Positions 31,076 through 52,204 of a stretch of DNA of 64,000 bases are shown one piece after another (the stretch's first letter is position 1; the number at the start of each line of letters is the position of its first letter). This DNA comes from Candidatus Omnitrophota bacterium. Its GTDB lineage: Bacteria; Omnitrophota; Gorgyraeia; Duberdicusellales; 4484-171. The stretch spans positions 304,960 through 368,959 of the forward strand of contig PMCS01000029.1 of NCBI GenBank assembly GCA_003154195.1. Direction: 5' to 3'. The notes beneath the pieces are model-generated. The model did no database searches. It saw only the letters and a program-made list of their open reading frames with translations, and had not been told where the DNA came from. A program made the position numbers and the translations under genes.

Positions 31076-31447
31076 ATGATGGTAAATTTCTGCAAAAAAC
31101 ATAAAAAAACAGCTTTTTTAAAGGGGTTTACCCTTATCGAATTGATTAACGTTATCGTGATTATCGGGATTCTTGCCGCAATCGCGGTTCCCCGGTTTCT
31201 CAACTTTCGCGATCAGGCTACGTTAGCAAGAGACCAGGGAGTTTTAGCGGCCTTAAGGTCGGCAATCTATCTTTATTATGTGCAAAGCGCCGCCCAGTGT
31301 AATGCTTCTTCTTCCTGCGACGCTTTCTATCCGCCCAACACCACTGTTTTGGTCGGCCTTGTCCACTGGGATCCTCCCGACCTCGCTTGTCAATATAATT
31401 GGACTCTTACTGACGGGTCGCTGGCCAAACCTACCTTTTGCCCATAG
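31076..31447 (+). CDS. pilA: Type IV major pilin (PilA-like), prepilin
   Basis: KGFTLIELINVIVIIGILAAIAVPRF is the canonical class III signal peptide and cleavage/methylation site. Cys pair in the C-terminus. Confidence 0.85.
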   Translation: MMVNFCKKHKKTAFLKGFTLIELINVIVIIGILAAIAVPRFLNFRDQATLARDQGVLAALRSAIYLYYVQSAAQCNASSSCDAFYPPNTTVLVGLVHWDPPDLACQYNWTLTDGSLAKPTFCP

Positions 31448-31873
31448 GCCGGCAGGGTTTTTTCCCTTTCGCAAACGTTTAAATAAAACTTTAAACTGAG
31501 ATTATTTGCGGTTGCCTGTTACCGATTGCCTTGACTTTCAGCAAAAAATATGTTACATTTTAAGTGAAGAAAAAGGCCGTTCTTTACAATCAGGCGAATG
31601 TTTTATAAATACATAATACTCGATAAGAGCAAACTCCGGGTAACCGGAGGACGCAAAGCTACGGATCCTTTGCAAAATACCAAAGAACCTAAAAACTAAA
31701 TAACAAAAATGCTTTAATCTTATATCTTAGTTTTTGGTTCTTTAATCGCCCAGGTTTTAAGTTTTTTGGTATATGCCGTAAGGATTGCCGGGTTGCCGAA
31801 AGTGTTTTTAGCTTAACGGTGAGAATCTATGCGCCGGACTGCTTTTAGTTGAGTGGCCCGGCATTTTTTATTT

Positions 31874-32025
31874 AATGAGACTTCGCCGTAATGAAACTTG
31901 CCCGGTACCCAGGGCTTAGTTGAATTAGCAAGCCCGAAGGGCGTAGCGGGAGGCGGTAGTCGAATCAATGAAACTAAGTCCCGCCGTATTCGGCGGGCCA
32001 AGTTTCATTGCCCCGAAGGGGGTTT
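31874..32025. repeat. Nested-palindrome repeat element, AATGAGACTTCGCCGTAATGAAACTTGCCCGG family (full copy)
   Basis: aatgagacttcgccgtaatgaaacttgcccggtacccagggcttagttgaatta...ggcgggccaagtttcattgccccgaaggggg. The arm taatgaaacttgcccgg pairs with ccgggccaagtttcatt. Related copies lie at 32596, 44236 and 62367. Confidence 0.7.
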
Positions 32026-32050
32026 GAGATCGTTGGGAAAATAAAAAAAC

Positions 32051-32078
32051 TTGACAAATCGGCTATTACTGCTATCCT
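32051..32078 (+). promoter_or_regulatory. Promoter-like TTGACA-16-TATCCT upstream of pilin gene B
   Basis: TTGACA at 32051-32056 with a weak -10 element. RBS AGGAGG at 32145-32150. Confidence 0.35.
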
Positions 32079-32158
32079 TAAAATAAGGGTGTGTTCTTAT
32101 TATATATTAACCATATTTCCCTGCAGGGGTAGGGAAATAAAAAAAGGAGGTGGGTCAG

Positions 32159-32539
32159 ATGCTTAAGTTTAGAAAGAGCAAAGGTTTTACTCTCATTGAG
32201 TTGATCATGGTCATCGTTATCATCGGTATTTTAGCGGCAATCGCGGTTCCTCGGTTTGTAAACTTACGTAAGGACGCGAGAAAGGCCCAGTGCGAAGGCA
32301 GCGTAGCGGCAATCAGGGCGGCGCTTTCCAATTATTTTGCTTATTGGTCGGTTAACAGCGCTCATTATAACGGCAATTTTCCTGCCAGCATTGGTGCTCT
32401 TGATAATTATTTTCAAGATAAGGCAGAGCCGTCGTCTCCCGGTTGGCTCAATGCTACTGCTACTTGGAATAGCTATTATACTTCAGGCCAGACCGGCACG
32501 ATGAACCAAAGTGCCGCATGCGACGTAAACAACTTCTAA
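32159..32539 (+). CDS. pilA: Type IV major pilin (PilA-like), prepilin
   Basis: MLKFRKSKGFTLIELIMVIVIIGILAAIAVPRF. AGGAGG lies 8 nt before the ATG at 32159. A GTG at 32150 (the track start) is less likely. Confidence 0.85.
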   Translation: MLKFRKSKGFTLIELIMVIVIIGILAAIAVPRFVNLRKDARKAQCEGSVAAIRAALSNYFAYWSVNSAHYNGNFPASIGALDNYFQDKAEPSSPGWLNATATWNSYYTSGQTGTMNQSAACDVNNF

Positions 32540-32566
32540 CGACATTTAGGGAGTTATTTTTAAAAA

Positions 32567-32595
32567 GCCCCGCATTTTATGCGGGGCTTTTTTTT
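32567..32595 (+). terminator. Canonical rho-independent terminator after pilin gene B
   Basis: GCCCCGCA-tttta-TGCGGGGC followed by TTTTTTTT. Confidence 0.8.
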
Positions 32596-32665
32596 AATGA
32601 GACTTCACCGTAATGAAACTTGCCCAGTACCCCGGCTTAGTTTTATTGCCCAGCGCTAATTCTGC
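32596..32665. repeat. AATGAGACTTC-family repeat, partial copy
   Basis: aatgagacttcaccgtaatgaaacttgcccagtaccccggcttagtttta. Confidence 0.65.
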
Positions 32666-32986
32666 GCAGTAAGATAGAGGGATGCAGCCAATTTTTTCTC
32701 GGACCGAAAAAACGGCAACCTGCTTCGCAATTCTTGAGAAACAGTTTGAACGCAGGTGTTTTTGTGGCCCAAAACAACGCTAAAAAATTTTTATCCATGT
32801 TTTTTTAATCCTGAGCGCCGGATTTTTGGTATATAGTAATTATCTGTCCGGTAAATTTGTCTGGAACGATAAGGTTTTGATAGGGGTAACACCTATTTAA
32901 GAAACTGGTCTAAGTAAGCGGTTAAGCGGGGAGTTAAACTTTACCGCAGGTTTCAGTTGTTCGGCGGTTATCAGGATTTACAATAG

Positions 32987-34645
32987 TTAACGCTGACGAT
33001 ATTTTTTCAGGTCTTCGGAGAATTGGGAGGTTGGTTTTGATCCTAATTCGGCCGCCCTGTCGCAATGCTTTATGGCTAAATTATATTTTTTCTGTTTATA
33101 ATAAAGCGCTGCCAAGTATTGATGCGCGTTGGCGTTGCCGGGTTTTTTCTTCAAGAGTTTTTCAAAAGCGTTTATCGCCTCTTCTATCCTGCCCGTTTGA
33201 AAGTAAACTATACCCATGTTATTAATATTATCCGGATATTCGGGATTTATCGCAAACGCTGTTTCAAAAGAAATAATCGCTTCTTTATATTTCCCTAAAT
33301 TAGAGTAGATGACTCCCAAATTATTGTAGGCGTTTACCAGCTGCGGTTCGATTTCTATTGCTTTTTTGTAAAAAGTCACAGCCTCTTGATATCGGCCAAG
33401 CTGATTATATTCATTGGCAAGGTTAAAATAGGGCCTGGCGCTACGGGGCGAATATTTTATCGTTTGCCGATAAAATCCTATCGGTTCCCGCCAATAGTAA
33501 TTTTGCCGGGCTGTTAAATAACAATAGGCGATTATTAGTAAAATAGCCGCTCCGGCCGTTATTATTTTGTATTGCCGGTTGCTGTAAATTTGGGTAAACC
33601 ATTTTCCCAGAATAAGGAAAAAGCCTACGGAAGGGACATATAAAAAATGTTCTGCCATATAAAAAGTAAGGGGAGGATAAATATTCGCGACCGGGATAAG
33701 CGTTATAAAAAACCATAAAACGGCAAACGATACTAAGGGGTTTGTGTTTTTTCTGCGCCCGGCATAGGCGATAAGGCAAATTGTTGCGCCTACGCCGGCA
33801 ATTGCCTGAGGGTGGCTGAATTTGAATAACTGGTTGCCGTATTCCATGTGCAGGTTCCAGGGAAGAAACAGCAACCGCAAATAGCCGGCTATGGCCACAA
33901 AGAAGCCCGGTGTCCTTTTCCAGGCGCCGGCAAGCAGGGATAAAGGAATGGCCGCCGATTTAGACACCGCAAGCCTTAAAAAAAGATAAACCGACAGTGT
34001 CGTTATTATCAAAAGAAACGCTTTGCCGTTGATTTTTCTTTTAAAAACGACGTGGTAGAGTAATATCAAAGCAGGAAAGACGATGCTGCCTTCTTTTGAT
34101 AACAGCGCCAATCCGTAAGTTAAAAAAGTTAGAAGATAAAGGGACGCGCCGGTAAGCCTGATATAGCAAATAAAACAAAGCAACATAAACAGCAACGCTA
34201 AAGAATCTGCCCGACCGGAGATATAACTTACTGCTTCCGTGTGTATGGGGTGAACAACAAAAAGCAAAGCGGTCAAAAAAGCAAGGAGCCTGTCGCCGAA
34301 GAGGCAGGCAACCAGCCGGAATAAAGCCAAAGCGGTTAAAATGTGCAAAAGAAGATTGGTTATATGGTAGCCGACGGGATTAAAGCCCCATAAGCGGTGA
34401 TCAAAGCTGTAGCTAAGCAGTTGCAGCGGGCGGTAAAAATAAGAAGGCGCATCGGTGTCCCCGATAGTTTTGGTAAAAACGGATTTTATGCCCGGACCGC
34501 CGCGGAGCGCGGGGTTGTTTTTAACTAAAGTTGTGTCATCCCACAAAAATTGGCCTTGAAATGAATTGTAGTAAGCGATAACAGCGGCGGCGATGATAAG
34601 CAAGGAAAAAAAAGTATAAGTTTTGTTTAATCCGAAAACTGCCAT
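32987..34645 (-). CDS. TMTC-like transmembrane glycosyltransferase (PMT_2/DUF1736 N-domain + C-terminal TPR repeats), paralog 1
   Basis: FLWDDTTLVKNNPALRGG (PMT-like loop DD motif), about 10 TM helices including a DUF1736-like region, and C-terminal TPR repeats (AINPEYPDNINNMGIVYFQTGRIEEAINAFEKLL). Confidence 0.7.
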   Translation of the reverse strand: MAVFGLNKTYTFFSLLIIAAAVIAYYNSFQGQFLWDDTTLVKNNPALRGGPGIKSVFTKTIGDTDAPSYFYRPLQLLSYSFDHRLWGFNPVGYHITNLLLHILTALALFRLVACLFGDRLLAFLTALLFVVHPIHTEAVSYISGRADSLALLFMLLCFICYIRLTGASLYLLTFLTYGLALLSKEGSIVFPALILLYHVVFKRKINGKAFLLIITTLSVYLFLRLAVSKSAAIPLSLLAGAWKRTPGFFVAIAGYLRLLFLPWNLHMEYGNQLFKFSHPQAIAGVGATICLIAYAGRRKNTNPLVSFAVLWFFITLIPVANIYPPLTFYMAEHFLYVPSVGFFLILGKWFTQIYSNRQYKIITAGAAILLIIAYCYLTARQNYYWREPIGFYRQTIKYSPRSARPYFNLANEYNQLGRYQEAVTFYKKAIEIEPQLVNAYNNLGVIYSNLGKYKEAIISFETAFAINPEYPDNINNMGIVYFQTGRIEEAINAFEKLLKKKPGNANAHQYLAALYYKQKKYNLAIKHCDRAAELGSKPTSQFSEDLKKYRQR

Positions 34646-34816: not shown

Positions 34817-36673
34817 ATGGAAATAATCACGGCTTTGGGGTCAGTTTTATTTATTATTTTATCGGCTGACGCGCTTGGCCGCCTGCCGCCAAGCGCTATT
34901 TTAAAAGATATATATGAGGCACGAATCGGCCTGGGGCTGGCGGTTATTTCCTATTTTATTTTTTTTCTCGGTATTTTTAAATTACTTAATTCCCCCGTTA
35001 TACTATTCTCGTCATTGCTTATTTTTTTACCGCTATTTTTCGCCAATTTAAAAAATTATAAATCTACCCTGCGGCGAACTGCAAGATATTTTTATCAACA
35101 AATCTGCTCGATGCCGATGTTCGATAAATTTATATTTTCTGTTTTAAGTGTTTACTTTGTTTTACTCTTTTTAAATACGCTGACGCCGCCCACCTGCCGT
35201 GATTCTTTGACTTACCATTTATATTTGCCTAAAATATGGCTGAAAGAACAACGGATATTTTCTTTACCAGAAAATATTTATTCATTTTTTCCGCATTTTT
35301 GGGAAATGCTTTATGCTTACGCTTTGCTTCTCGGCGGCGATATCGGCGCAAAGCTCCTGCATTTGTTTACCATTTTCCTAAGCGCGAGGCTCATCGCGAG
35401 AATCATTAAATTGTTGTACCCGCGGATAGAACGCCGGTATATTCTGCTGAGCATTCTTGTTTTTGTTTCCACTCCTACAATCGGCAAAATCGCCACCTGG
35501 GCATACGTCGATCTCGCCCAGACTTATTATCTTTTACTTTCTTTTTATTTCCTGTTTTTGTTCCTGCGGGGAGAAAGGAAAATAACGTTTTATTTGTCGG
35601 CCATCTTTTTAGGTTGCGCCTTAGCCATAAAATACCTTTCGTTGGTATGGCTTTTGTTTTTGCCGTTTTTGATTCTGGAGAAAAAGATTGAAGAAAAGAA
35701 AGGAAAAGAAGCTTTATTTTTGATCGGCGCTTATGTCACTACGGCTTTATCGTGCGCCTTACCTTATTATCTCAAAAATTATTTTGATACCGGCAACCCT
35801 TTTTATCCTTTTTTTTACGGTATCTTCGGCGGTCGATTCCTTGATGCCGGAAAAAGCGTGCTGCTTGACGGGTATTTTAAAAGTTTCGGCTATGGCAATG
35901 GGCTGGGTGATTTATTGTTTTTACCGATAAGATTGGCGTTTTTTTCACGGTTTGAAAACCATCAAAAGTTTGACGGCGAAATCGGGATAATTTATTTGTT
36001 GCTGGCGGTTATCTTTATATGTAAATATAAAAAAATAGATTTGTGGAAGTCTTTAATCTATCTACCCTTTATCGGCGTTTTATTATGGTTCGCGGCCAGC
36101 CAGCAGGTACGATTTTTAATTCCTTTGCTGGCGGTTTTTATCATAATCGCCATAGGGCCGCTGGGACGGGTAAATAAATTTTATTTAAATCTGGTTTTAG
36201 CGATAATCAGCGCTTTATATTTATATTACCCGACCAGGCAATTCATCGAAGCCAGGCCTTACAATTTTATTTTAAACAGGGAAAGCCGCCCGGCCTATTT
36301 AGTAAGAAGCTATCCGATTGTTTATCCCTTGATTGAGAAGATAAACCGGTATGTTCCCCGCGATTCAAAAATAATGCTTTTAATGACCGGACAGATCGCT
36401 TATTTGTTCCAACGCGATGTTTATCAAGAGGTAATCTTTGAAGATTACTCTTTAAGAAAAGCGCTACGGAAAGGGGTAGGCGAAACCATGGGATTTTTTA
36501 AAAATAACCGAATAACCTTTATACTTATTAACGAATCGGCGGTCGCCGGATATTTCGATGAATATGCCGGGAAACAGGTTATTTTTAATTACCTTGAGCT
36601 GAGAAGGAAATATTTAAAGCCGGTTTACCGGCAAAATGGTTTTGGTGTTTATGAAATTATTTTTCCGCGTTAA
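34817..36673 (+). CDS. Large polytopic membrane protein, putative GT-C fold glycosyltransferase
   Basis: 618 aa with at least 12 TM helices, a periplasmic-loop motif RDSLTYHLYLPKIW, and a C-terminal soluble domain. Confidence 0.4.
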   Translation: MEIITALGSVLFIILSADALGRLPPSAILKDIYEARIGLGLAVISYFIFFLGIFKLLNSPVILFSSLLIFLPLFFANLKNYKSTLRRTARYFYQQICSMPMFDKFIFSVLSVYFVLLFLNTLTPPTCRDSLTYHLYLPKIWLKEQRIFSLPENIYSFFPHFWEMLYAYALLLGGDIGAKLLHLFTIFLSARLIARIIKLLYPRIERRYILLSILVFVSTPTIGKIATWAYVDLAQTYYLLLSFYFLFLFLRGERKITFYLSAIFLGCALAIKYLSLVWLLFLPFLILEKKIEEKKGKEALFLIGAYVTTALSCALPYYLKNYFDTGNPFYPFFYGIFGGRFLDAGKSVLLDGYFKSFGYGNGLGDLLFLPIRLAFFSRFENHQKFDGEIGIIYLLLAVIFICKYKKIDLWKSLIYLPFIGVLLWFAASQQVRFLIPLLAVFIIIAIGPLGRVNKFYLNLVLAIISALYLYYPTRQFIEARPYNFILNRESRPAYLVRSYPIVYPLIEKINRYVPRDSKIMLLMTGQIAYLFQRDVYQEVIFEDYSLRKALRKGVGETMGFFKNNRITFILINESAVAGYFDEYAGKQVIFNYLELRRKYLKPVYRQNGFGVYEIIFPR

Positions 36674-37358
36674 ATTTTCCCATTACCCTTACCGGCTTTT
36701 TTCCGGCCAGGGGATATTAGGGTTATGTTTTTTTTCCTCTTTGCTATGGGAAAATTACCTGGTTAAATCAGGCAAGCCCACGGCAAGAGCCGTGCTGATA
36801 TTTTTATGCGCTTATCTTTTAATTTTTCACAGTACCTTTAGTTTCCGGGGAGGTCGGCCTGGATTAAATATTTTCAACTCCACCTACGCTCATTTTTTTA
36901 AAGCCGATATGGATAAATTGCTGGAGTTTAAGTCTATTTTTTATCCCGCCGATTATTACCCGATTGTCGATGTTATTAAAAAACATACCCGGCCGCAGGA
37001 GATTATTTCTTCCAATATCGATATGATGACCGGAGTTTTTTCCGCGTTATCCGGCCGGCCCGCGGCTAATTCGATGTTTTATGAAATAAAGGCCCGGAGG
37101 GCTATTTTCGAAGAGTATGTTTTTGCCCGGTTGATTGTCTGGATCAAACCGCCGGACAAAACTCTTTATTTTTTAAAAAACCGTTTGAAATGGCAAAAGA
37201 TTTATGAAAATAAAATCGCGATTGTTTTTGAGAATCCCAATGCTTCCCGCCGTATCTATCCCGCAAAAGCAGTAATCCCGTTTAAATATATCGGCGTAAT
37301 CTTAGCGATTATTTTTATGTTTTTGGCTTTTGATTTATTTTTGCGGAATAAAAAATAA
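36636..37358 (+). CDS. Hypothetical membrane-associated protein
   Basis: 240-aa ORF overlapping the previous gene by 38 nt in a different frame. Hydrophobic N- and C-termini. The start is uncertain; an internal ATG lies at 36912. Confidence 0.3.
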   Translation: MVLVFMKLFFRVKFSHYPYRLFSGQGILGLCFFSSLLWENYLVKSGKPTARAVLIFLCAYLLIFHSTFSFRGGRPGLNIFNSTYAHFFKADMDKLLEFKSIFYPADYYPIVDVIKKHTRPQEIISSNIDMMTGVFSALSGRPAANSMFYEIKARRAIFEEYVFARLIVWIKPPDKTLYFLKNRLKWQKIYENKIAIVFENPNASRRIYPAKAVIPFKYIGVILAIIFMFLAFDLFLRNKK

Positions 37359-37359
37359 A

Positions 37360-38967
37360 ATGAAATTATTGCATATTATTATAATAATAGTTCTCGGTTT
37401 AGTAATTTACTCTAATTCGCTGGCCGGTCGGTTTGTCTGGGATGATTATACCTTAGTGGAGGCAAACACTTACCTGAGGAGCTGGTCCCATGTGCCCGAT
37501 ATTTTTACCAGAGATATGGGTTCTGGCGCCGACGTAAAATATTATTTTTACCGCCCTTTGCAGATATTTATTTACCGCCTAATCTATTCCTTGGCGAAAT
37601 TAGATGTAAGATTTTACCATTTCGCCAATATTTTTTTTCATATCGGCGCTGCTTTATGCGTTTATGGATTAGCGGTTATGATTTTTAGCGATAGCTTGCC
37701 GGCTTTTTTTACGGGGATTCTCTTTTTGGTTCATCCGATACAAACCGATGCTGTTTGCTATATTTCCGGAATAGCTGACCCTCTCTGCGCGGTATTTTTG
37801 CTCTTGTCTTCTATATTTTATATAAAATTTATCCATTGCGATAATAATTTTCAATCCGGTGCCGGCCGCAAACGGATAATCTTTTATGTTTTAGCGCTAA
37901 TAAGCTGTAATCTAGCTCTTTTGTCCAAAGAAATTGGTTTGGTTTTTCCGCTTATACTTTTATTGTGCCATTATACGTTTAAGAAAAAACTAGAAGGTAA
38001 ATATTTTTTGCCATTTTTGATTATCGTTTTTAGTTACCTATTATTTCGCAATTCAATCGTCGGCAACAATGCCCCGTTTAGTTTTACCGCCGCAGTATTG
38101 AGAATTCCCGGATTTTTTGCCGCGCTCGCCGATTACGCCCGGCTTTTGCTGCTCCCTTTCGGTTTGCATGCGGATTACGGGAACAAGCTATTCAGTTTTT
38201 TTCAGCCCGTGACGATACTGGGATTGAGTATTGTACTTTTTTTGCTGGTTCTGGCGTTCAAGAAAAAAAATAAAAACAATATTCTATTCTTTTCCGTAAT
38301 GTGGTTTTTTATCACGCTTTTACCGGTTTCCGGGATATACCCTATTTTACGTTTTTATATGGCCGAACATTATTTATACCTGCCGTCGCTGGGATTCTTT
38401 TTAATTTTTGCCGACATCCTAAATCGTGCCTGCCGAGTTGACAAATTTAAAATTGCCGGCCGTATTTTAATAATATTTTTAGTCGGTTTTTATTCTTATT
38501 TGACCGTTAAACAGAATAATTACTGGCGGGAACCGGTAACATTTTATAAAAGGACGGTTAAATATAATCCTCTAAGCGTCAGGATGTGGATGATGCTTGG
38601 CGAGATCTATTTTGCCGGGGCCAGGTATGATGAGGCGGAGGCGGTATTCAAAAAGGTCGTAGAGATTAATCCCAACCATTCAGCCGGTTACTTTACCTTA
38701 GGCAATATCTATGCAAGGAGGGGGCAGTTTAAGGATGCCGCTTTTTATTTTGAAAAAGCCATCGAAGTTAACCCTGAGCACGCCGCGGCTTATAATAATC
38801 TGGCTAACCTTTTCAGGCAAATCGGCAGAAAAAATATCGCGGTATCTTTGTACAAAAAAGCTATCGAAGTTGATGCTCATCTTGAATCGGCTCGCGCCAA
38901 TCTTGCCGATATTTCTCATAATCTGGACGAGCCGGAACCAAAAAAGAAAAAAAATCGTCCAGATTAG
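37360..38967 (+). CDS. TMTC-like transmembrane glycosyltransferase with TPR repeats, paralog 2
   Basis: FVWDDYTLVEANTYLRSW, DUF1736-like TM core, and C-terminal TPRs (INPNHSAGYFTLGNIYARRGQFKDAAFYFEKAIEVNP). The ORF is open from 37330. Confidence 0.7.
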   Translation: MKLLHIIIIIVLGLVIYSNSLAGRFVWDDYTLVEANTYLRSWSHVPDIFTRDMGSGADVKYYFYRPLQIFIYRLIYSLAKLDVRFYHFANIFFHIGAALCVYGLAVMIFSDSLPAFFTGILFLVHPIQTDAVCYISGIADPLCAVFLLLSSIFYIKFIHCDNNFQSGAGRKRIIFYVLALISCNLALLSKEIGLVFPLILLLCHYTFKKKLEGKYFLPFLIIVFSYLLFRNSIVGNNAPFSFTAAVLRIPGFFAALADYARLLLLPFGLHADYGNKLFSFFQPVTILGLSIVLFLLVLAFKKKNKNNILFFSVMWFFITLLPVSGIYPILRFYMAEHYLYLPSLGFFLIFADILNRACRVDKFKIAGRILIIFLVGFYSYLTVKQNNYWREPVTFYKRTVKYNPLSVRMWMMLGEIYFAGARYDEAEAVFKKVVEINPNHSAGYFTLGNIYARRGQFKDAAFYFEKAIEVNPEHAAAYNNLANLFRQIGRKNIAVSLYKKAIEVDAHLESARANLADISHNLDEPEPKKKKNRPD

Positions 38968-38974
38968 TCATTTG

Positions 38975-44335: not shown

Positions 44336-44368
44336 GTAAATCGCCGGCTTCGTCGGTGGTAATTAACT

Positions 44369-46063
44369 ATGCGTAATAGTATTATCTATTTATTAATCTT
44401 TCTTGCTGTTTTAGGAGTGCTTAGCCCTATTGTATTTCTACGTACCTGGCCCCTGACCCATGATACTTCCCGGTATATTGTCCTTTTGGACCATTTTCGC
44501 GCGGCATTTCTCCAGGGGATAATCTATCCTCGTTGGCTTCCCAATCTATACGGCGGTTATGGGTACCCTACTTTTTTATTTTACCAGCCGGGATTTTTCT
44601 ATTTTGCTCTCCCTTTTACTTTTCTTCCCGGGTATCCGGAAAATGCCATACCCCTGGCGGTAATTTTCTTATTCTTTCTCGGCACCGCCGGCGCTTACCG
44701 CCTTTGTAAGGAAATATCTTCCGATAACATGACCGCGCTGTTTTGTTCGCTTTTATTTTTGTTAACGCCCTATCTCTACGTAAATTTTTATGTCCGCGGC
44801 GATTTAAGCGAATTAATGGCGATGTTGCTGTGCCCCTGGCCTTTATATTTTTTGATCAAGCTGAAGAAAAATATTTTTTCGCTTAAATACACAATCAGTT
44901 TGCTTGCTGCTTTAAGCATGGTTTTTATTTCTCACCCGGCAACCGCTTTATTTTTTATCTTGGTTTTTTGCGTTTTTGTCATAGCGCTTTTTTTTGATCT
45001 GCCTTTGGCTTCGCGTAAAAGTTTTCTCATCAACGCGGCGTTTGTGGCTATTGCCGCCGGGATTTTAACTTCGCCGTACTGGTTCACCATATTTAAAATG
45101 AAACCCTATGCTAATATTGAGGTAGTAACCGAAAATTATTTTTTGTGGGAACGCCATTTTGTCTCTGTCCCCCAATTATTTTTGCGCTACCGGGAATTTA
45201 GCGCTTCAGTCCCGGGCCGGGCTGACGTGTCTTTTCAACTGGGAGCATTCCATTTTCTTTTTGCCTTATGCGGTTTTGTAGCCATGCGGCGTAAAAAGGT
45301 TATTGCAGTATCTTTTTTTCTGTATCTATTTTTAATTTTTCTGATGACGCCTTACAGCGCGCCATTATGGCGATGTATTCCTTTTATGAAGTTTGTACAG
45401 TTCCCCTGGAGGATTTTATCGGTTACCGCCACCTTACAGGTTATTTGTGCTTGCGGTATCGCCGCGCTTTTCTCCACGAGTTTTTCCTCCGGGCGTAAAG
45501 TAAGCCTGATGGTGATGTTGCTGGCGCTGATGTTGTTATGGTATTCCCCGCAGTTTAAAATATCCGGCACGCTGGATATCGACGCTTCTCTACGCGAGGC
45601 AAAGATCCCGGAAATTACGCGGTTTGATACCTATACGGCATATAATGAATTTTTACCTAAAGCGGCGCTGGGGAAAACTTTTTTATCCAGCCGTTTCAAT
45701 ACGGGGATGCTTTCGCTAAGCGGATCAGCAAACTGTATTCCTTTTAAAGATAATAGCGAATACCGGCTTCATTATCAAGTCAAGGCTGCCTCGAGGGTAG
45801 TGGCGCGGATTAACCAGCTTTATTTTCCGGGTTGGAAGGTTATGGTTAATGGTAAAACTATTTCGTCTCTATTTCTGGAGAAGAATATTTCAGAAGACCC
45901 GCGGATATTCTTCGTTTTACCCGGGGCCGGAGATTATGAGATTGAAGCATTTTACGACGGCCCGCCGGGTCATTTTAAACATAATATTATAAACGCTTTT
46001 TTAATGACGGTACTAGGCGTTGTTTTAGTTTATTACCGACGGGAGTTGTCAGCTAAGGCCTAA
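44369..46063 (+). CDS. Large polytopic membrane protein, putative GT-C-like glycosyltransferase
   Basis: 564 aa, at least 12 TM helices, conserved-looking loop RWLPNLYGGYGYPTFLFYQPGFFY, and a C-terminal beta-rich domain. Confidence 0.4.
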   Translation: MRNSIIYLLIFLAVLGVLSPIVFLRTWPLTHDTSRYIVLLDHFRAAFLQGIIYPRWLPNLYGGYGYPTFLFYQPGFFYFALPFTFLPGYPENAIPLAVIFLFFLGTAGAYRLCKEISSDNMTALFCSLLFLLTPYLYVNFYVRGDLSELMAMLLCPWPLYFLIKLKKNIFSLKYTISLLAALSMVFISHPATALFFILVFCVFVIALFFDLPLASRKSFLINAAFVAIAAGILTSPYWFTIFKMKPYANIEVVTENYFLWERHFVSVPQLFLRYREFSASVPGRADVSFQLGAFHFLFALCGFVAMRRKKVIAVSFFLYLFLIFLMTPYSAPLWRCIPFMKFVQFPWRILSVTATLQVICACGIAALFSTSFSSGRKVSLMVMLLALMLLWYSPQFKISGTLDIDASLREAKIPEITRFDTYTAYNEFLPKAALGKTFLSSRFNTGMLSLSGSANCIPFKDNSEYRLHYQVKAASRVVARINQLYFPGWKVMVNGKTISSLFLEKNISEDPRIFFVLPGAGDYEIEAFYDGPPGHFKHNIINAFLMTVLGVVLVYYRRELSAKA

Positions 46064-46105
46064 TTATCTGATAATTACTTGCGCAGATTACCGTAGCGCA
46101 GTAAA

Positions 46106-48154
46106 ATGAATTCTATGAATTTTTTTCAAAAAGAAAACAGAGACCACATAGTTATTGTTTTTCTTATTTTTTACGCCGTCCTCTTGTATTCCAGCTCTCT
46201 GCAGGCGCCTTTTTATTTTGACGATTCGCACATGATCGCGAATAATCTTTTTATTAAAAACCCCAGGTATCTCATCTGGATTTTAAAAGGTTATGTTACC
46301 AGCTTTACTATCGCTAAGGGGATGATGCTCCGGCCGTTGCTGATGGTTACTTTTGCCGCAAATTACTGGACCGGCGGCTTGAATCCCGTCGGCTATCATA
46401 TTTTCAATATTCTTTTCCATTTCTTATGCGCCGTTTTTCTTTACCTTTTTTTAAAATTCCTGAAAAAAGACGCGCCGGCCGGGCTGATATTTCTTATCAC
46501 TCTTTTATTCCTGGCGCATCCCTTGAATACGGAAGCCGTTACTTATTTATCCAGCCGTTCCGATTTGATGGTCACTTTGTTTATTGGGTTAGCATTTTTA
46601 CTTTACCTTAAAGGTAAAGCCGTGGCGGCCGTTTTATGCTATCTGTGCAGTTTGCTTACTAAAGAAACTGGTTTATGCTTGCCCCTGCTTGCTTTAGCCT
46701 ACGATTTTATTTTCGCGTCGTCCGCCGCCGATTGCCGCGGGCCGACAGCGGTTTCCCCGGGGCGTGATGTTCTTAAATCGGGGAAAGAAAAAAAGTGGTA
46801 TTTTTACGCGTTTCTGGTTTTGACCACAGTTCTTTATCTTTTTTATAAGAAGACATTTTTTGCTGAGCCTCTCTCGACGCCGCTGCGTTCTTATTATTCC
46901 AACATTCTTATCCAGTCCGCTGTTACTTTTTTTTATCTTAAATTATTCTTCTGGCCTCACCCTTTGATTCTGGTGCATAATTTTCCGGAATTTAACAATA
47001 TCCTCGATCCTATTGCTTTTCTATCGTTTTTGGGGATAGTCGTTTTGGTTATTTTAATTTTTGCCGCAAGAAAGGAATATCCCCTTTTTTCTTTCGGCCT
47101 GGCCTGGTATTTGATTTGCCTTCTTCCTAAATTTTACGCCCGGCTCAATTATACCGCCTGCGAGCACCATTTCTATCTTCCTTCCCTGGGCATCTACATC
47201 ATCCTGCTGGCTGTTTTGCAAAAACTATATGTAAAATACAAACGTTATTTTTTATATCCCGCAGCCGGGATTATTATTATTTGCACACTGCTGGTTTGGC
47301 TAAGAAATTATGAATGGAGTGATGAGTTTCGGTTTTGGAAATTAACGGCCTTGCGCGAACCGCTGTCCAGTAACGCCCACAGTCAATTGGGGGTAGAATA
47401 TATTCGAAGAGGGTTTGTCGACGAGGCTAAGGGTGAGTTTGAAACGGCCCTGCGTTTATCCGATAAATTACCCAGTATTATTAATAATAAAGGCAATCTT
47501 GCGGGTATCTACCGCAGGAAGAAAGATTACACGAAAGCTATATCTTTATTGAACGAACTTACTAAAATTTATCCGGCGCCGCCCAGGGTATATGAAAATA
47601 TGGGGATTATTTATATGGAAATGGGCAGGGAGTCGGAGGCTTTGCGCGCGTGGGTGAAAGAGTTAAGAAATTACCCCCAGTCTCCGGGAATTTATGTCAT
47701 GCTGGGGTTGTATGAGCTTGATCACAAGAAGAATGTGGACCGGGCGCAAAAACTTTTTCAAGAAGCTTTGCGCTTAGAACCGGATGATTATCTGGGTTAT
47801 TATGGCTTGGGGAGAGTGGAGGATAATAGAGGAAATATCGCGCAAGCCGTCGCTTACTACACCAAATCTATTTTCCTGGCTCCCTACTTTTTTGACGCCC
47901 ATTACGCTTTAGGTTTTGTTTATTCCCGAATGGGAGATTTGCGCGCTATAGAGGAATTTAAAACAGCGATTAAGCTCGACCCTTCCGCCGGCCGGGTTTA
48001 TAACGATTTAGCGGTTTTTTACGCCTCCCTTAAAGAGCCGGATTGGCTGTCGGCAAACGTTTATGCTCAAAAGGCAAAACTATCGGGATATTCCGTGAGC
48101 GGCGAATTTTTGGAAATAGTCGATAAAAATCTTAAAAAACAAAATTTGCGCTAA
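46106..48154 (+). CDS. TMTC-like transmembrane glycosyltransferase with TPR repeats, paralog 4
   Basis: FYFDDSHMIANNLFIKNP, DUF1736-like core, and a long C-terminal TPR array. Confidence 0.65.
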   Translation: MNSMNFFQKENRDHIVIVFLIFYAVLLYSSSLQAPFYFDDSHMIANNLFIKNPRYLIWILKGYVTSFTIAKGMMLRPLLMVTFAANYWTGGLNPVGYHIFNILFHFLCAVFLYLFLKFLKKDAPAGLIFLITLLFLAHPLNTEAVTYLSSRSDLMVTLFIGLAFLLYLKGKAVAAVLCYLCSLLTKETGLCLPLLALAYDFIFASSAADCRGPTAVSPGRDVLKSGKEKKWYFYAFLVLTTVLYLFYKKTFFAEPLSTPLRSYYSNILIQSAVTFFYLKLFFWPHPLILVHNFPEFNNILDPIAFLSFLGIVVLVILIFAARKEYPLFSFGLAWYLICLLPKFYARLNYTACEHHFYLPSLGIYIILLAVLQKLYVKYKRYFLYPAAGIIIICTLLVWLRNYEWSDEFRFWKLTALREPLSSNAHSQLGVEYIRRGFVDEAKGEFETALRLSDKLPSIINNKGNLAGIYRRKKDYTKAISLLNELTKIYPAPPRVYENMGIIYMEMGRESEALRAWVKELRNYPQSPGIYVMLGLYELDHKKNVDRAQKLFQEALRLEPDDYLGYYGLGRVEDNRGNIAQAVAYYTKSIFLAPYFFDAHYALGFVYSRMGDLRAIEEFKTAIKLDPSAGRVYNDLAVFYASLKEPDWLSANVYAQKAKLSGYSVSGEFLEIVDKNLKKQNLR

Positions 48155-48205
48155 CTTAAAAAATTACCACAGACAAGCCGCCGTCCGGGGAATGCCTGTT
48201 TGGTT

Positions 48206-48230
48206 GCCTCGCTTTGCGGTCGAAGCGGGC
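48206..48230 (+). promoter_or_regulatory. Conserved hairpin motif GCCTCGCTTTGCGGTCGAAGCGGGC (copy 1 of 2)
   Basis: The stem CGCUUUG/CGAAGCG carries a U-G wobble where the copy at 55531 has a C-G pair. Sits in the 5' region of TMTC-like paralog 5. Confidence 0.5.
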
Positions 48231-48274
48231 CGTCAGGCAAGCGCGGCACATTTTCCCGGTTGAGGAATAGAAAA

Positions 48275-49954
48275 ATGAACCGCAGCAAATACACCGCTAT
48301 TTTTTTTATATCAATATTGGGTATCATCGGCTACGTTAATTCCTCCAACGGTAGATTTATCCTCGACGATAAGATGTTGGTGAGGGACAATGCGTATATA
48401 AGAAGTTTTTCCCGCTTTCCCAGTCTTTTTGCTTCCGATATCGGTTCCGGCGCAGGCTGCACCGCAGGCTACTTTCGTCCCATCCCGATGTTAAATTATA
48501 CACTGGACTATCATTTATGGAAGCTGGATCCCCGCGGGTATCATTTAAGCAATATTATCCTGCATATTCTTGTCGCGCTTTGCGCGTATTGGTTGGCTGA
48601 TATTATTTTTGCCGAAAATATTCTTTCAACGCTGGTGGGAATATTTTTTGTAATTCACCCTATCCAGACCGAAGCCGTGTCTTATATTTCTTCGCGTTCG
48701 GAATTATTGATGGGATTGTTTTCATTCCTTTGTTTTATTTTCTATCTAAAATATTCCGTAAGTGAACCGGCGAAACGGTTGTCAAGTATTGGTTTCTTTT
48801 CCCTCATGTCGCTAAGTTATATTATCGCTCTTCTTTCCAAAGAGACGGCCTTGGTTGTCCCCGTGTTGATTTTGCTTTATAGCTGCGCCTTCGGCAAAAA
48901 AACTAAAAAAAATGCCCTGGCGGGTTTATTGATCGCAGCTATTCTTTACGTAATTTTTAGATCAACCATTTTTCAATCCGTGCCTGTCCATATGGATAGA
49001 TTTGCTACCGTTGTCCCGAGAATTCCGGGAATATTTGTCGCCCTGGTCAAGTATCTTTCGCTGTTGTTATTTCCTTTCGGCACGCATATGAATTATGGAC
49101 TTAAGTTTTTTAGCTTTTTCGACCCGAATGTGCTTGCCGCTGCTATTATCGTCGCCGTTTTAATAATATATACGATAAAAAAAAGGAAGCTTTACCCGCT
49201 TTTATTTTTTTCAGCCGGATGGTTTTTCGTCACGCTGCTGCCCGCTTTAAATATTTATCCGCTCGATTCTTACATGGCGGAACGCTATCTATACCTGCCG
49301 TCTTGGGGATTTTTTTTAGCCCTTGCCTGGGGCTTGAGCCGTTTGTACAAAAATAATAAACTATGGTGTTTGGGCTTGAGCGCATTTTTAATCGTGTCTT
49401 ATTCATTCCTGACTATTAAACAAAATAACTACTGGAAAGATCCGATCAGCCTTTATGGGGCGACGCTTAGGCAGGAACCGGATAACTACCGTATTCATGA
49501 GGCGCTTGCCGGAGAATACTATCTTGAAGGAAGAGTGAATAAAGCCATAGAGGAGTATCTGAAAGCGATAGAAATCAATCCCGGTTATGGCCGGGCATAT
49601 GGTAATCTCGGTAATGTTTTTTGCAAACAGGGAAAAATTAAACAGGCGGTTTTTATGTACATGAAGGCAATAAATTCCCGTTCAGAAAAAGACGTTATCG
49701 GCGCGGCGTATTATAATCTGGGTAATTTATATCTTTCGATAGGAAAAGACAGCCAGGCAGTTGAATTATATAGAAAAGCCGTGGAAATCATCCCCGCCAT
49801 GGCCGCGGCGCATAATAATTTAGCCGTGCTTTATTATTATAACAAAGACTACGGGCTTGCGGTTAAGCATTATAACCAGGCAAGGAAGCTCGGCTATAAT
49901 GTTCATCCGGACTTTAAAAAGGCAATCGATAATTATGCGGGTACAACTCGTTAG
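48275..49954 (+). CDS. TMTC-like transmembrane glycosyltransferase with TPR repeats, paralog 5
   Basis: FILDDKMLVRDNAYIRSF and C-terminal TPRs. The ORF is open from 48200; the first Met before the TM segment is at 48275. Confidence 0.65.
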   Translation: MNRSKYTAIFFISILGIIGYVNSSNGRFILDDKMLVRDNAYIRSFSRFPSLFASDIGSGAGCTAGYFRPIPMLNYTLDYHLWKLDPRGYHLSNIILHILVALCAYWLADIIFAENILSTLVGIFFVIHPIQTEAVSYISSRSELLMGLFSFLCFIFYLKYSVSEPAKRLSSIGFFSLMSLSYIIALLSKETALVVPVLILLYSCAFGKKTKKNALAGLLIAAILYVIFRSTIFQSVPVHMDRFATVVPRIPGIFVALVKYLSLLLFPFGTHMNYGLKFFSFFDPNVLAAAIIVAVLIIYTIKKRKLYPLLFFSAGWFFVTLLPALNIYPLDSYMAERYLYLPSWGFFLALAWGLSRLYKNNKLWCLGLSAFLIVSYSFLTIKQNNYWKDPISLYGATLRQEPDNYRIHEALAGEYYLEGRVNKAIEEYLKAIEINPGYGRAYGNLGNVFCKQGKIKQAVFMYMKAINSRSEKDVIGAAYYNLGNLYLSIGKDSQAVELYRKAVEIIPAMAAAHNNLAVLYYYNKDYGLAVKHYNQARKLGYNVHPDFKKAIDNYAGTTR

Positions 49955-51323
49955 ATACCAGGATCTGGCAAATATAAACACGCGGTTGGCGCAAAGTTTG
50001 AATAAACACCAGGGCGTCTTACCTCCTTTGGGTATAGCCTATATTGCCTCTTCTCTCGAAAAAGCGAATCATGACGTTGATATCATTGATGCAATCGCGC
50101 TTAAAATGTCAAGAGATCAGGTGCGGCGCCGGATAAGAGAATTCCACCCGGATGTTGTCGGGATTACGGCAATGACCCCTACTTTTCCAGGCGCGAAAGA
50201 AGCCGCGTGGCTGGCGAAACAAGAAGGCGCGATAACCGTGATGGGCGGCGTGCATATGGCGATTTTTGCCGAAGAAACATTATCTTATGATTATGTTGAT
50301 TTTGGCGTAATCGGAGAAGCCGAGGAAACGATTGTTGAGCTGTGCGCCGCGATAGAAAATAAACAGCCATTCGAGCCGATCAAAGGGTTGGCTTTTAAAA
50401 AAGACGGCAAGATTATTGCCGGCCGGCCGAGAATCATAGAAGATTTAGATAGTTTGCCGATGCCGGCGTACCATCTTTTGCCGATGGATAAATATTCTTC
50501 CATCATCGGTTTGCACCCTGTTTCTACCATGATGGCTTCGCGCGGCTGCCCTTACCGGTGTGGTTTTTGTTATAAGACCCCTTCGGACGTCAAGCATCGT
50601 TATCGAAATTACGCGCAGGTTGCCGATGAGATGGAATTTCTTATCAAAAATTATCGCGTCAAAGAAATAATGTTCTATGATGACCTGATGATGCCGCAAT
50701 TTGTGGAAAACTTATGCAATGAGATTTTAAAACGTAAGTTAAAAATCGCCTGGCAGTCTCCCCAAAGAGTAAATTTAGTAACCTTCCCCTTGCTGAAGTT
50801 GATGAAAAAAGCGGGATGCCGTATGCTCAGGTATGGTATCGAGCAGGGCGATCCGGAAATGATGCGGCTGATTGAAAAAAATATTACTTTGCAAGGGGCA
50901 AAAGATGCGTTGCGCTGGACGCATCAGGCCGGCATAGAGACTTTTACTTATTATATTATCGGATATCCCGGCGAAAACGAAAGAACGGTTAGGGCGACGA
51001 TCAACCTTGCCAAGGAGTTGGATTCGCGTTATGCTATGTTCACTAAAGCGGTGCCTCTACCGGGAACAAAATTAATGGAATCGGCGGCTGGGAAGGGGCT
51101 GGTTGAACAAGATTATTGGCGTAAATTCATTTTGGGGCAAAATGTTAAACCGCTGCCTGATTTTATCCCGGGAACGGAAAAGTGGGTAGAGCGCGCGTAT
51201 AAAGAATTTTATTTGCGGCCGGCTAAAATAATAAAACAAATCGCGAGCATTCGCGGGTGGGAGGATATTAAAAAAAGTATCGCCGGTTTTATGGGGTTGG
51301 TAAATTTTAAAATGAGAGAATAA
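49935..51323 (+). CDS. B12-binding domain radical SAM enzyme (class B radical SAM family)
   Basis: N-terminal cobalamin-binding-like Rossmann domain (IAYIASSLEKANHDVDIIDA) and the radical SAM cluster motif CPYRCGFC. The ORF is open from 49857, so it overlaps the upstream gene. Confidence 0.75.
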   Translation: MRVQLVRYQDLANINTRLAQSLNKHQGVLPPLGIAYIASSLEKANHDVDIIDAIALKMSRDQVRRRIREFHPDVVGITAMTPTFPGAKEAAWLAKQEGAITVMGGVHMAIFAEETLSYDYVDFGVIGEAEETIVELCAAIENKQPFEPIKGLAFKKDGKIIAGRPRIIEDLDSLPMPAYHLLPMDKYSSIIGLHPVSTMMASRGCPYRCGFCYKTPSDVKHRYRNYAQVADEMEFLIKNYRVKEIMFYDDLMMPQFVENLCNEILKRKLKIAWQSPQRVNLVTFPLLKLMKKAGCRMLRYGIEQGDPEMMRLIEKNITLQGAKDALRWTHQAGIETFTYYIIGYPGENERTVRATINLAKELDSRYAMFTKAVPLPGTKLMESAAGKGLVEQDYWRKFILGQNVKPLPDFIPGTEKWVERAYKEFYLRPAKIIKQIASIRGWEDIKKSIAGFMGLVNFKMRE

Positions 51324-52204
51324 TGAGTATTGTAAAATATTTATTTTTATCTATACGGCCGAAGCAGTGGATCAAAAATTTGTTTATCATCTTACCGTTG
51401 ATCTTCGGCAGGAAACTTTTTTTTTACCCGGACAATGGCAGGGCTTTTTTAGCGCTTTTACTTTTTTCTTTAACCAGTAGCGCCGTCTATCTATTGAACG
51501 ATATTATTGATATTGAGAAAGATAAGTTCCATCCGGTTAAATCAAGCCGGCCGCTCGCTTCCGGAAAAATCAGCGTAAGAGATGCCGCTATTGTTTCAGC
51601 CCTATTGGGAATTGTTTCTACTTTTTTTTCTTTTGTCCTGGATATCGGCTTGGGATGGACAGTCATCGCCTATCTTGGCGTTAACCTTTTCTACTCTCTT
51701 TTTCTGAAGAATATAGTAATCATTGATATATTTTGCGTGGGTTGTTTTTTCCTTTTGCGTATCCTGGCCGGCGGTTTTGCCGCGCATGTTTTAATATCTC
51801 ACTGGATTATAATTATGACTTTTTTTCTCGCGCTTTTTTTAGGCTTTGTCAAAAGGCGCCAGGAGTTAATCATGCTGGAAGAAAACTCTGCTTATCATCG
51901 AACAGTTTTAAGCAAATATAATTCTTATTTTATCGACCAGTTGATAACAGTAATCGTTTCTTCAATTGTGGTGAGTCATATGTTGTATACCGTAGACGCC
52001 AGGACGGTAAAGGAATTCGGTAGCCGGCATTTGCTTTACAGCGTTCCTTTTGTTTATTATGGAATTTTTCGTTATCTTTATCTAATACATAAGGCTAAAA
52101 CCGACGGCGATCCTACGAATATTTTATTGTCGGATAGGCCGCTGCAGGCCGCGGTTATTTTTTGGGTTATTGTTTGTATCGCGGTGGTTTATTTTGGCCT
52201 CTAA
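51323..52204 (+). CDS. UbiA-family prenyltransferase, decaprenyl-phosphate phosphoribosyltransferase (DPPR synthase)-like
   Basis: RPKQWIKN...SAVYLLNDIIDIEKDKFHP...RPLASGKIS...RILAGGFAA...VKRRQEL closely parallels the mycobacterial Rv3806c-type sequence pattern, including the NDxxDxxxD motif. Confidence 0.7.
   Translation: MSIVKYLFLSIRPKQWIKNLFIILPLIFGRKLFFYPDNGRAFLALLLFSLTSSAVYLLNDIIDIEKDKFHPVKSSRPLASGKISVRDAAIVSALLGIVSTFFSFVLDIGLGWTVIAYLGVNLFYSLFLKNIVIIDIFCVGCFFLLRILAGGFAAHVLISHWIIIMTFFLALFLGFVKRRQELIMLEENSAYHRTVLSKYNSYFIDQLITVIVSSIVVSHMLYTVDARTVKEFGSRHLLYSVPFVYYGIFRYLYLIHKAKTDGDPTNILLSDRPLQAAVIFWVIVCIAVVYFGL

Follow-up and report, generated by a model that had tools for sequence, protein, structure and literature searches.

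GT-C-mediated glycosylation of pilins from lipid-phosphate-linked monosaccharides is, to our knowledge, known only from TfpW of Pseudomonas group IV strains and from a few other Proteobacteria, and TfpW-type glycosylation shields pili from phages. Here, we describe a candidate counterpart in a Candidatus Omnitrophota bacterium, encoded in a 64,000-nt stretch of contig PMCS01000029.1 (positions 304,960–368,959; hereafter the window, whose own numbering is used throughout), where two prepilin genes lie beside an island of membrane-glycosylation genes that includes a UbiA-superfamily homologue of mycobacterial decaprenyl-phosphate 5-phosphoribosyltransferase (DPPR synthase). In P. aeruginosa, the known system consists of TfpW and PsPA7_6245–6249 (Kus 2008; Harvey 2011; Villela 2020). 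TfpW is a 646-aa GT-C protein whose periplasmic loop 1 bears a DDx motif; it also has a YX6PFX7P motif and carries a tetratricopeptide repeat (TPR) domain at its C terminus. Its gene lies directly 3′ of pilA, and the enzyme attaches D-arabinofuranose (D-Araf) from a polyprenyl-phosphate donor that homologues of Rv3806c, DprE1 and DprE2 synthesize (bioRxiv 10.1101/2020.04.19.049825). Widespread three-component systems decorate polysaccharides with pentofuranose side chains. They combine a polyprenyl phosphoribose synthase, in some cases fused to a phosphatase, with a flippase and a GT-C enzyme, and a GalE-like short-chain dehydrogenase/reductase (SDR) or DprE1/E2 sets the sugar as ribofuranose (Ribf), xylofuranose (Xylf) or arabinofuranose (Araf) (Kelly et al. 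2024; PMC11127046). Omnitrophota are a candidate phylum of ultra-small cells whose type IV pili are thought to mediate host attachment (PMC10066038); we found no literature on pilin glycosylation in this phylum.

Pili of this bacterium are probably sugar-coated by a TfpW-like route, as judged from related genomes that repeat the pairing of pilin and transferase genes. In the window, the MSHA-type pilins PilA1 and PilA2 are the likely acceptor of the island. As to the sugar, we favor extracytoplasmic protein glycosylation in which a UbiA-derived pentofuranose is placed on the pilin, a reading held tentatively, at a little under an even chance; use of only a sugar derived from a family 2 glycosyltransferase (GT2) is less probable. 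In the favored reading, UbiA (51323–52204) would transfer ribose-5-phosphate from phosphoribosyl pyrophosphate (PRPP) to polyprenyl phosphate, and dephosphorylation would yield polyprenyl-phosphate-ribofuranose, which a translationally coupled B12-binding radical SAM enzyme (B12-rSAM) may alter. The GT2 at 54626–55510 would add a polyprenyl-phosphate-linked hexose or amino sugar as a further donor. Once the donors had been flipped to the periplasmic face, GT-C proteins with C-terminal TPRs (GT-C+TPR), with 46106–48154 as the leading candidate, would bind the pilin and move single sugars to Ser/Thr residues, and other GT-C paralogues might extend or branch the glycan.

Open reading frames (ORFs) of the window were profiled with Pfam, NCBIfam and Rfam, complemented by a sequence search of the PDB and by motif regular expressions run on the cluster proteins. 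The nearest relatives of the window proteins were all proteins of Omnitrophota metagenome-assembled genomes, and the same gene order was seen on public contigs. The glycosylation-enzyme block comprises 21 membrane-glycosylation genes without a break, from 32987 to at least 63895 (~31 kb), namely five GT-C+TPR paralogues, no fewer than seven other polytopic proteins (matching PMT_2, PMT, STT3-N or PTPS_related, or nothing), the B12-rSAM, UbiA, two GT2 and one family 4 glycosyltransferase (GT4). The sequence-only reading, which had recognized GT-C enzymes here and ended the cluster at 52204, was right about the former, but their count and extent are larger and the block runs on past that point. 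A 13-gene same-strand run (44369–63895; intergenic gaps ≤202 bp) holds 46106–48154, the rSAM, UbiA and the GT2 at 54626–55510.

Both pilin genes lie on the forward strand: pilA1 (31076–31447; 123 aa), a divergent paralogue with four cysteines, and pilA2 (32159–32539; 126 aa, or 129 aa from a GTG at 32150), an orthologue of MSHA-type major pilins. Their initial description as PilA-like prepilin genes is borne out by the prepilin N-terminal methylation motif found in both (PF07963, 24.5 bits for PilA1 and 36.0 bits for PilA2 vs. a cut-off of 21.2; TIGR02532 of NCBIfam also matched), with additional GspG/PilA N-terminal matches for PilA1. Each has a class III signal peptide with G(–1), F(+1) and E(+5), reading G↓FTLIEL and leading into a hydrophobic helix. 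The genes are 703 bp apart, and this interval contains a cyclic di-GMP-I (c-di-GMP-I, GEMM-I) riboswitch aptamer in the pilA2 leader (31618–31801, forward strand; Rfam RF01051, 56.4 bits vs. a gathering score of 35, E=2.4e-8), with a 107-nt insertion in one hairpin loop. Such a leader fits the c-di-GMP-binding MshEN and PilZ proteins encoded in orthologous MSHA-type operons; no c-di-GMP riboswitch was found in six related pilin loci. Pilus assembly genes were not seen among the window ORFs scanned. N-glycosylation of the pilins, an idea raised by an STT3 match on 42491–44191 together with the NxS/T sequons (three in PilA1, two in PilA2), was rejected, as no cluster protein carries WWDxG and orthologous pilins have no sequons.

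Orthologues of PilA2 form a family at 58–82% identity and a wider tier near 50%. On longer contigs, genes of orthologues at 52–60% identity closed an MSHA-type pilus operon in five of five cases, following genes for a secretin, an MshN-like TPR protein, an MshEN+T2SSE ATPase, AAA_22, T2SSF, a response regulator and PilZ or MshEN proteins. We took 10 kb on each side of the pilin gene; downstream sequence was present for four of the five loci, and in three of these (L176, L177 and L178) a GT-C+TPR gene stood directly after the pilin. In L176, two tandem pilins precede two convergent GT-C+TPR genes, after which come genes for a GGDEF protein, a B12-rSAM and a GT2; L177 has a pilin and then two convergent GT-C+TPR genes. 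In L178, the pilin is followed by a same-strand GT-C+TPR and a GT2, with the transferase immediately 3′ of the pilin as in the pilA–tfpW arrangement. The five pilin-adjacent GT-C+TPR proteins all matched 46106–48154 best (327–579 bits vs. ≤186 for the other four paralogues), and the GT2s of L176 and L178 are orthologues of 54626–55510 (332 and 437 bits, respectively). Counting the window, pilin and GT-C+TPR genes stand side by side in four of five lineages whose pilins are only ~50% identical.

Starting from UbiA, we scanned an alignment of its homologues against GTDB species genomes and Joint Genome Institute (JGI) metagenomes and labelled the ORFs of the resulting 160 loci with phmmer. The commonest neighbor was a GalE-like SDR directly 3′ of UbiA (an SDR without an rSAM within three genes in 42 of 146 surveyed loci; both in four), and in Omnitrophota polytopic proteins of 520–630 aa with weak PMT_2, PMT or GtrII matches often flank UbiA. 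Judged by gene content, this combination is the scheme of Kelly et al., often set in polysaccharide-type clusters. The first survey of UbiA loci, with a prepilin within 10 kb in one of 86, spoke against a pilin link; the later pilin-centered survey changed the picture. Two loci demonstrate that pilus-dedicated UbiA modules exist in Omnitrophota. L009 (16–12969) encodes, on one strand, pilB-pilC-UbiA-SDR-GT-C+TPR (606 aa)-PAP2_3 phosphatase-pilin-pilM-pilN-pilO-pilQ and is the one of the two in which the complete pentofuranose module sits inside the pilus operon, between pilC and the pilin. In L104 (1–8428), the module lies beside the pilus genes, UbiA-SDR-GT-C+TPR being convergent with pilB-pilC-pilin-HAD hydrolase, so that the phosphatase slot is filled by PAP2_3 in the former and HAD in the latter. 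The GT-C+TPR of L104 is 70% identical to that of L009, whose top window match is paralogue 5 (48200–49954; 1.5e-29). Clustering of pilin, transferase and donor genes in these two loci recalls P. indica and K. denitrificans. Throughout the UbiA-centered loci, every pilin adjoins, or is one gene from, a GT-C+TPR gene.

Several observations weigh against a UbiA-derived pentofuranose on the pilins. Pilus linkage was found in only two of 52 Omnitrophota-like UbiA loci (532 kb), and others, such as L001 and L003, are polysaccharide-type clusters with Bac_transf, Wzy_C, GT4 and PMT_2. The conserved donor synthase of L176 and L178 is the GT2, no UbiA being visible in the 10 kb taken on either side of the pilin gene, and L173 has no glycosyltransferase downstream of its pilin. 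The L009/L104-type GT-C+TPR is only 24–26% identical to the window proteins, and window-type GT-C+TPR genes occur in L170, L171 and L172 without a pilin nearby, the copy in L171 standing alone. Nor do the pilins lie immediately upstream of the cluster in an operon sense, as had been supposed: they form their own transcription units, the next gene (paralogue 1, 32987–34645) follows pilA2 after 448 bp in convergent orientation, pilA2 has its own riboswitch leader, and UbiA is 19 kb and the pilin-linked orthologue 46106–48154 13.5 kb away. Among the hallmarks of TfpW, Asp-Asp after the first transmembrane segment (TM1) and the C-terminal TPR recur in the window, but the proline motif YX6PFX7P had no regular-expression match in any window GT-C+TPR; the L009-type protein carries PFX7P only, and the window-type family keeps YMAEHxLYLPSxG instead. 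Finally, pathway parts were missing from the window. When all six frames were searched by phmmer with the PAP2 and SDR proteins of L009, neither a phosphatase nor an SDR came up, and no HAD or PAP2 protein was seen; no Pfam family of a MATE, SMR or GtrA-like flippase appeared among the window ORFs scanned, a scan that covered ORFs shorter than 80 aa non-exhaustively. No epimerase was detected either, with no FAD_binding_4-type, DprE2-type or SDR protein among the large window ORFs scanned.

Part of this evidence is what one would expect if the pilins were glycosylated only by a GT-C+TPR of the 46106–48154 type with a GT2-made donor, while the module of UbiA, rSAM and GT-C+TPR paralogue 5, together with most GT-Cs, decorated another acceptor, be it a surface polysaccharide, a lipid-anchored glycan or other envelope proteins, as in the systems of Kelly et al. 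This is the strongest of the competing explanations, although we consider it unlikely. The GT2 rather than UbiA co-occurs with the GT-C+TPR in L176 and L178, which marks it as the conserved supplier of the donor for a presumed modification of the pilin, and both the polysaccharide-type setting of UbiA in L001 and L003 and the O-antigen acceptors of known three-component systems (PMC11127046) are in line with a separate task for UbiA. Yet UbiA, the rSAM, the GT2 and 46106–48154 share one tight same-strand run; as L009 and L104 illustrate, a UbiA module in this phylum can be devoted to pili; and an initiating phosphoglycosyltransferase, Wzx or Wzy was not found among the window ORFs scanned.

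Next in standing, and likewise unlikely, is the view that the adjacency to pilins is incidental and that the island makes a non-pilin envelope glycoconjugate from lipid-phosphate-linked sugars, in the style of mycobacterial arabinan or mannan, with the TPRs binding other substrates or partners. The GT-C+TPR family is indeed a very large one, with 20,483 cluster representatives at E≤1e-10, and includes the pilin-free L170 and L172 arrays and the L171 copy, pilins are transcribed separately, and prepilins were rare in the first UbiA survey. However, conserved adjacency of 46106–48154 orthologues and PilA2-family pilins in three more genomes, across pilins of ~50% identity, is hard to account for unless the two are functionally coupled; the pilins of the UbiA-centered loci also lie next to, or one gene from, a GT-C+TPR gene. 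Since other family members occur in arrays or alone without pilins, the pilin link appears specific to one orthologue group. Pilin pentofuranosylation, the central proposal of the sequence-only reading, therefore stands in part: the DPPR-type UbiA, the TfpW-like architecture of the GT-Cs, the gene adjacency in L176, L177 and L178 and the L009 and L104 modules argue for it, whereas the pilin-linked orthologue travels with the GT2, not with UbiA, and 50 of 52 UbiA loci lie away from pilins.

The glycosyltransferase assignment itself concerns five paralogues, each with a 400-residue polytopic domain followed by TPRs: paralogue 1 (32987–34645, reverse strand), paralogue 2 (37330–38967, forward), paralogue 3 (40545–42407, reverse), paralogue 4 (46106–48154, forward) and paralogue 5 (48200–49954, forward). 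Paralogue 1, which also gave a weak PMT_2 match, is 38–42% identical to paralogues 2, 3 and 5. TPR matches were obtained for all four of these, and Asp-Asp is present in all five proteins, with FLWDD (paralogue 1), FVWDD (2) and FIWDD (3) after TM1 and FILDD in paralogue 5; assignment of paralogue 2 drew additionally on paralogy. Paralogue 5 lies directly 5′ of the rSAM–UbiA pair, and paralogue 4, the candidate pilin glycosyltransferase, belongs to the orthologue group that adjoins pilins in other Omnitrophota. Because three membrane domains, those of paralogue 4, paralogue 5 and the L009-type protein, drew no Pfam match at E≤10, assignment to GT-C needed structure prediction. A confident AlphaFold2 model of 46106–48154, built on 90 homologues (predicted local distance difference test, 88.9; predicted template-modelling score, 0.87), superposes with its polytopic domain on Pmt2, Pmt4, STT3B, ALG12 and ArnT over 304–372 residues. 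D39–D40, directly after TM1, is invariant in the 90 homologues; a DDx motif in loop 1 combined with a predicted GT-C fold is a TfpW-type feature. The C-terminal part matched multiple Pfam TPR families, with the OGT TPR domain as the top structural match. A PDB sequence search with the membrane domain of paralogue 3 and with the whole of 42491–44191 returned no meaningful match, and hhalign of the GT-C+TPR profile against the single GT-Cs of the window yielded at best a weak one (59492–61096, E=8e-4). On the strength of the model, the TPR-bearing membrane proteins appear to be GT-C glycosyltransferases.

That they should instead be pilus assembly or stability factors like PilF, PilW or MshN is highly improbable. 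Such a role would explain their position beside pilins, one homologue is named PilW by JGI, and no Pfam model covers the membrane domain of 46106–48154, but neither the superposition of a 400-residue polytopic domain on known GT-C enzymes, nor an invariant Asp-Asp at the GT-C catalytic acid position, nor co-occurrence with lipid-sugar donor synthases fits an assembly factor, and the operons already encode a separate MshN-like TPR protein of ~200 aa.

Among 1.84 billion cluster representatives, the membrane domain alone (46106–47362) has 56,981 relatives at E≤1e-3, of which 20,483 reach E≤1e-10, and those with a name, from Planctomycetota, Latescibacterota and Gemmatimonadota, are called only "tetratricopeptide repeat protein". 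Tandem arrays of the family comprise six GT-C+TPR paralogues in L172 (10001–22169; CP070807.1) and three in L170 (6649–11890), with neither pilin nor UbiA nearby.

The UbiA protein (51323–52204, forward strand) scored 80.8 bits on Pfam UbiA and 253.9 bits on NF008977 (decaprenyl-phosphate phosphoribosyltransferase; cut-off 234). Its top PDB match was Rv3806c (8j8j, E=7.7e-39), with a full-length alignment over residues 6–292, the next family following at 6e-4. Mapping the published list of Mg2+, PRPP and decaprenyl phosphate ligands (PMC10994848) onto the 8j8j alignment revealed identity at 10 of 12 substrate-binding residues of Rv3806c (R22, K28, Y70, N73, D77, K87, R90, Y138, K143 and K191). 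The two differences are a conservative exchange of Q135 for Asn and of Y157 for Phe, the latter a natural variant in some mycobacteria (PMC10994848). The equivalent window residues (R12, K18, Y56, N59, D63, K73, R76, N121, Y124, K129, F143 and K177) are invariant in 23 Omnitrophota homologues. In Rv3806c, K28 and Y70 contact the 5-phosphate, and the phosphoribose-binding residues are not kept in other UbiA enzymes (PMC10994848). The window protein is thus predicted from its sequence to be a DPPR-synthase-family polyprenyl-phosphate 5-phosphoribosyltransferase and not a quinone or chlorophyll prenyltransferase, in agreement with its first description as resembling DPPR synthase. An aromatic prenyltransferase of the MenA, UbiA, heme O or chlorophyll synthase type, with no role in sugar-donor supply, is effectively refuted: despite its membership of the UbiA superfamily and despite the name "4-hydroxybenzoate polyprenyltransferase" that JGI gives many homologues, the NCBIfam models for heme O synthase, UbiA, chlorophyll synthase and DGGGP synthase reached only 16–50 bits vs. 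cut-offs of 180–313, and the phosphoribose-specific K28 and Y70 of Rv3806c are present.

No DprE1 or DprE2 homologue was found among the large window ORFs scanned, as had been noted from the sequence, and the suggestion that the donor may be ribofuranose rather than arabinofuranose is consistent with this absence from the window; D-Araf is not expected here for the same reason, unlike in the TfpW system. A second lipid-linked donor is suggested by the GT2 at 54626–55510 (forward strand; PF00535, two C-terminal transmembrane segments), which aligned in the PDB search to ArnC (1e-19), Dol-P-Man synthase (DPMS; 1e-18) and GtrB (1e-14), including the C-terminal transmembrane hairpin; from these alignments, it is assigned as a polyprenyl-phosphate glycosyltransferase.

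The B12-binding radical SAM gene (49857–51323, forward strand, true start probably near 49935; PF02310, PF04055) overlaps with its stop codon the start of UbiA (TAATG), which implies translational coupling. Orthologues at 48–51% identity adjoin UbiA in L003/L004 and L130 (L003, 10990–12426; L130, 1090–2523), where no SDR lies within three genes of UbiA, and in L003 the rSAM takes the usual SDR slot directly 3′ of UbiA. B12-rSAM genes more distantly related to it are found repeatedly at UbiA loci of Omnitrophota. The top PDB match was AprD4, a radical SAM enzyme that modifies sugars, with cobalamin-dependent methyltransferases next, and we infer that the window enzyme might modify the lipid-linked pentose. 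A more far-reaching idea, which we regard as doubtful, is that in some Omnitrophota the cobalamin rSAM replaces the SDR or DprE1/E2 and converts polyprenyl-phosphate-ribofuranose into a new pentofuranose, which a TfpW-like GT-C+TPR would then put on type IV pili. The product may, for instance, be C-methylated, deoxygenated or epimerized, and the pili may be host-contact organelles of ultra-small, probably epibiotic bacteria.

Two other arrangements around UbiA were seen outside the window. A ~370-aa DUF362 protein directly 3′ of UbiA forms a conserved pair in L028 (10881–11969) and ~17 other loci from Ignavibacteria, Zixibacteria and others. In L005 (7306–11656) and L101, a Rieske/FMN_red protein lies upstream of UbiA, and an SDR and an HI0933-like flavoprotein lie downstream; these flanking proteins could constitute an alternative oxidase/reductase pair for epimerization.

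Set against the TfpW system, the favored pilin glycosylation route has in common GT-Cs of ~550–700 aa with DDx in the first periplasmic loop, a C-terminal TPR resembling OGT, a membrane domain resembling ArnT, a gene position beside the major pilin gene and a DPPR-synthase homologue for a polyprenyl-phosphate-pentofuranose donor; the likeness of the window GT-C+TPRs to TfpW is one of architecture and predicted fold, as distinct from a comparison with the TfpW sequence itself. The two systems differ in the lack of YX6PFX7P, the MSHA type of the pili and the phylum. Relatives have a GalE-like SDR, and the window a B12-rSAM gene in that position, rather than DprE1/E2; neither a GtrA-like flippase nor an Rv3807c/6245-like phosphatase was found in the window. 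An ArnC/GtrB-like GT2 is the conserved partner, and a dozen GT-C genes stand against one. With the systems of Kelly et al., the island shares a UbiA-type synthase with an N-D-x-x-D-x-x-x-D loop and R-x-x-E, GT-Cs predicted to use lipid-phosphate-pentofuranose outside the cytoplasm and, across the surveyed loci, an optional GalE-like SDR beside the synthase and an HAD (L104) or PAP2 (L009) phosphatase. It departs from them in its candidate acceptor, a pilin rather than O-antigen polysaccharides (PMC11127046), its synthase has no fused HAD (PRP) domain, and the window yielded neither a MATE nor an SMR flippase. The window GT-Cs carry TPRs, unlike the GT136 GT-Cs with their carbohydrate-binding module, a contrast drawn from domain content and not from alignment to GT136 references.

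The mycobacterial decaprenyl-phosphoryl-arabinose pathway (Rv3806c, Rv3807c, DprE1/E2, Emb/Aft) has an orthologous first enzyme with the shared substrate contacts described above, and mycobacterial arabinan and mannan assembly likewise employs many GT-C paralogues in one locus and lipid-phosphate monosaccharide donors; by contrast, the island has no epimerase pair and no Emb/Aft-type matches and belongs to a Gram-negative-type cell with pili. TMTC1–4 combine a GT-C domain that has an acidic pair after TM1 with a subsequent lumenal TPR domain. Like these proteins and the eukaryotic and actinobacterial protein O-mannosyltransferases (PMT, GT39), the window enzymes are proposed to act on protein Ser/Thr with lipid-phosphate-sugar donors, but 46106–48154 has no Pfam PMT, PMT_2 or DUF1736 match and no MIR domain, and mannose is not expected as the only donor sugar. 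Finally, the ArnC/ArnT and GtrA/GtrB/Gtr* systems parallel the island in the alignments of its GT2, transmembrane hairpin included, and in the ArnT-like fold of its GT-C, but they act on lipid A or O-antigen, and a flippase of the ArnE/F or GtrA type was not detected in the window.

Taken as a whole, the data suggest a conserved, elaborated TfpW counterpart in Omnitrophota. Its components and logic have precedents in TfpW, in the three-component pentofuranose systems and in ArnC/ArnT. New would be the phylum, the MSHA-type pilus, the dual donor supply and an SDR or radical SAM partner in place of DprE1/E2; the dozen GT-C genes, and the apparent GT-C domain of a huge family annotated only as "TPR protein", would likewise be new. 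The assignment would provide a likely function for the large "tetratricopeptide repeat protein" family, broaden the three-component pentofuranose concept, formulated for polysaccharides in 2024, to proteins as acceptors and point to a possible new radical SAM modification of a lipid-linked pentose.

The rest of the block is made up mostly of further membrane proteins. Between paralogues 1 and 2 lie, on the forward strand, a 618-aa polytopic GT-C-like protein (34817–36673; weak PMT_2 match, E=1.7e-3; eleven hydrophobic segments) and a 240-aa protein with two transmembrane segments and no Pfam match (36636–37358). On the reverse strand, a 527-aa PMT_2-type GT-C (38975–40558; 27.6 bits vs. a cut-off of 26.1) precedes paralogue 3, which is followed by a GT-C with PMT_2 and STT3 N-terminal regions (42491–44191; 37.2 and 34.4 bits, respectively; no WWDxG). 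The 13-gene forward-strand run opens with a polytopic PTPS_related-like protein (44369–46063; PF10131, 24.3 bits, below cut-off). Downstream of UbiA, it continues with a small protein with two transmembrane segments and a HAMP domain (52350–52973; PF00672, 23.7 bits, below the cut-off of 25), a 501-aa polytopic protein of GT-C-like size and topology (53012–54517; ~13 hydrophobic segments, no Pfam match) and, after the ArnC/DPMS/GtrB-like GT2, a PMT/PMT_2-type GT-C (55643–57205; PF02366, 27.3 bits vs. a cut-off of 22.7). A GT2 fused to a polytopic C-terminal domain (57221–59374; PF00535, 102.9 bits; six hydrophobic segments after residue 257), a PMT_2-type GT-C (59492–61096; PF13231, 56.4 bits), a GT4 enzyme of GT-B type (61299–62417; PF00534, 117.6 bits) and a 493-aa polytopic protein (62414–63895; eight hydrophobic segments, no Pfam match) complete the run. 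The HAMP-domain protein 52350–52973, placed inside the glycosylation run directly after UbiA, has no output domain.

Further features lie upstream of the pilins. A run of small forward-strand genes 8 kb away (20479–23358), including a prepilin-motif protein (20972–21565) and a DUF4900 protein (21562–22917), is probably a minor-pilin or pseudopilin set. The reverse strand encodes a full-length bacterial serpin (15896–17149; Pfam Serpin, E=6e-116) and, directly upstream of and divergent from pilA1, an 877-aa GH94-family glycoside phosphorylase (28149–30782), whose adjacency to pilA1 was also seen on further contigs of the same organism.

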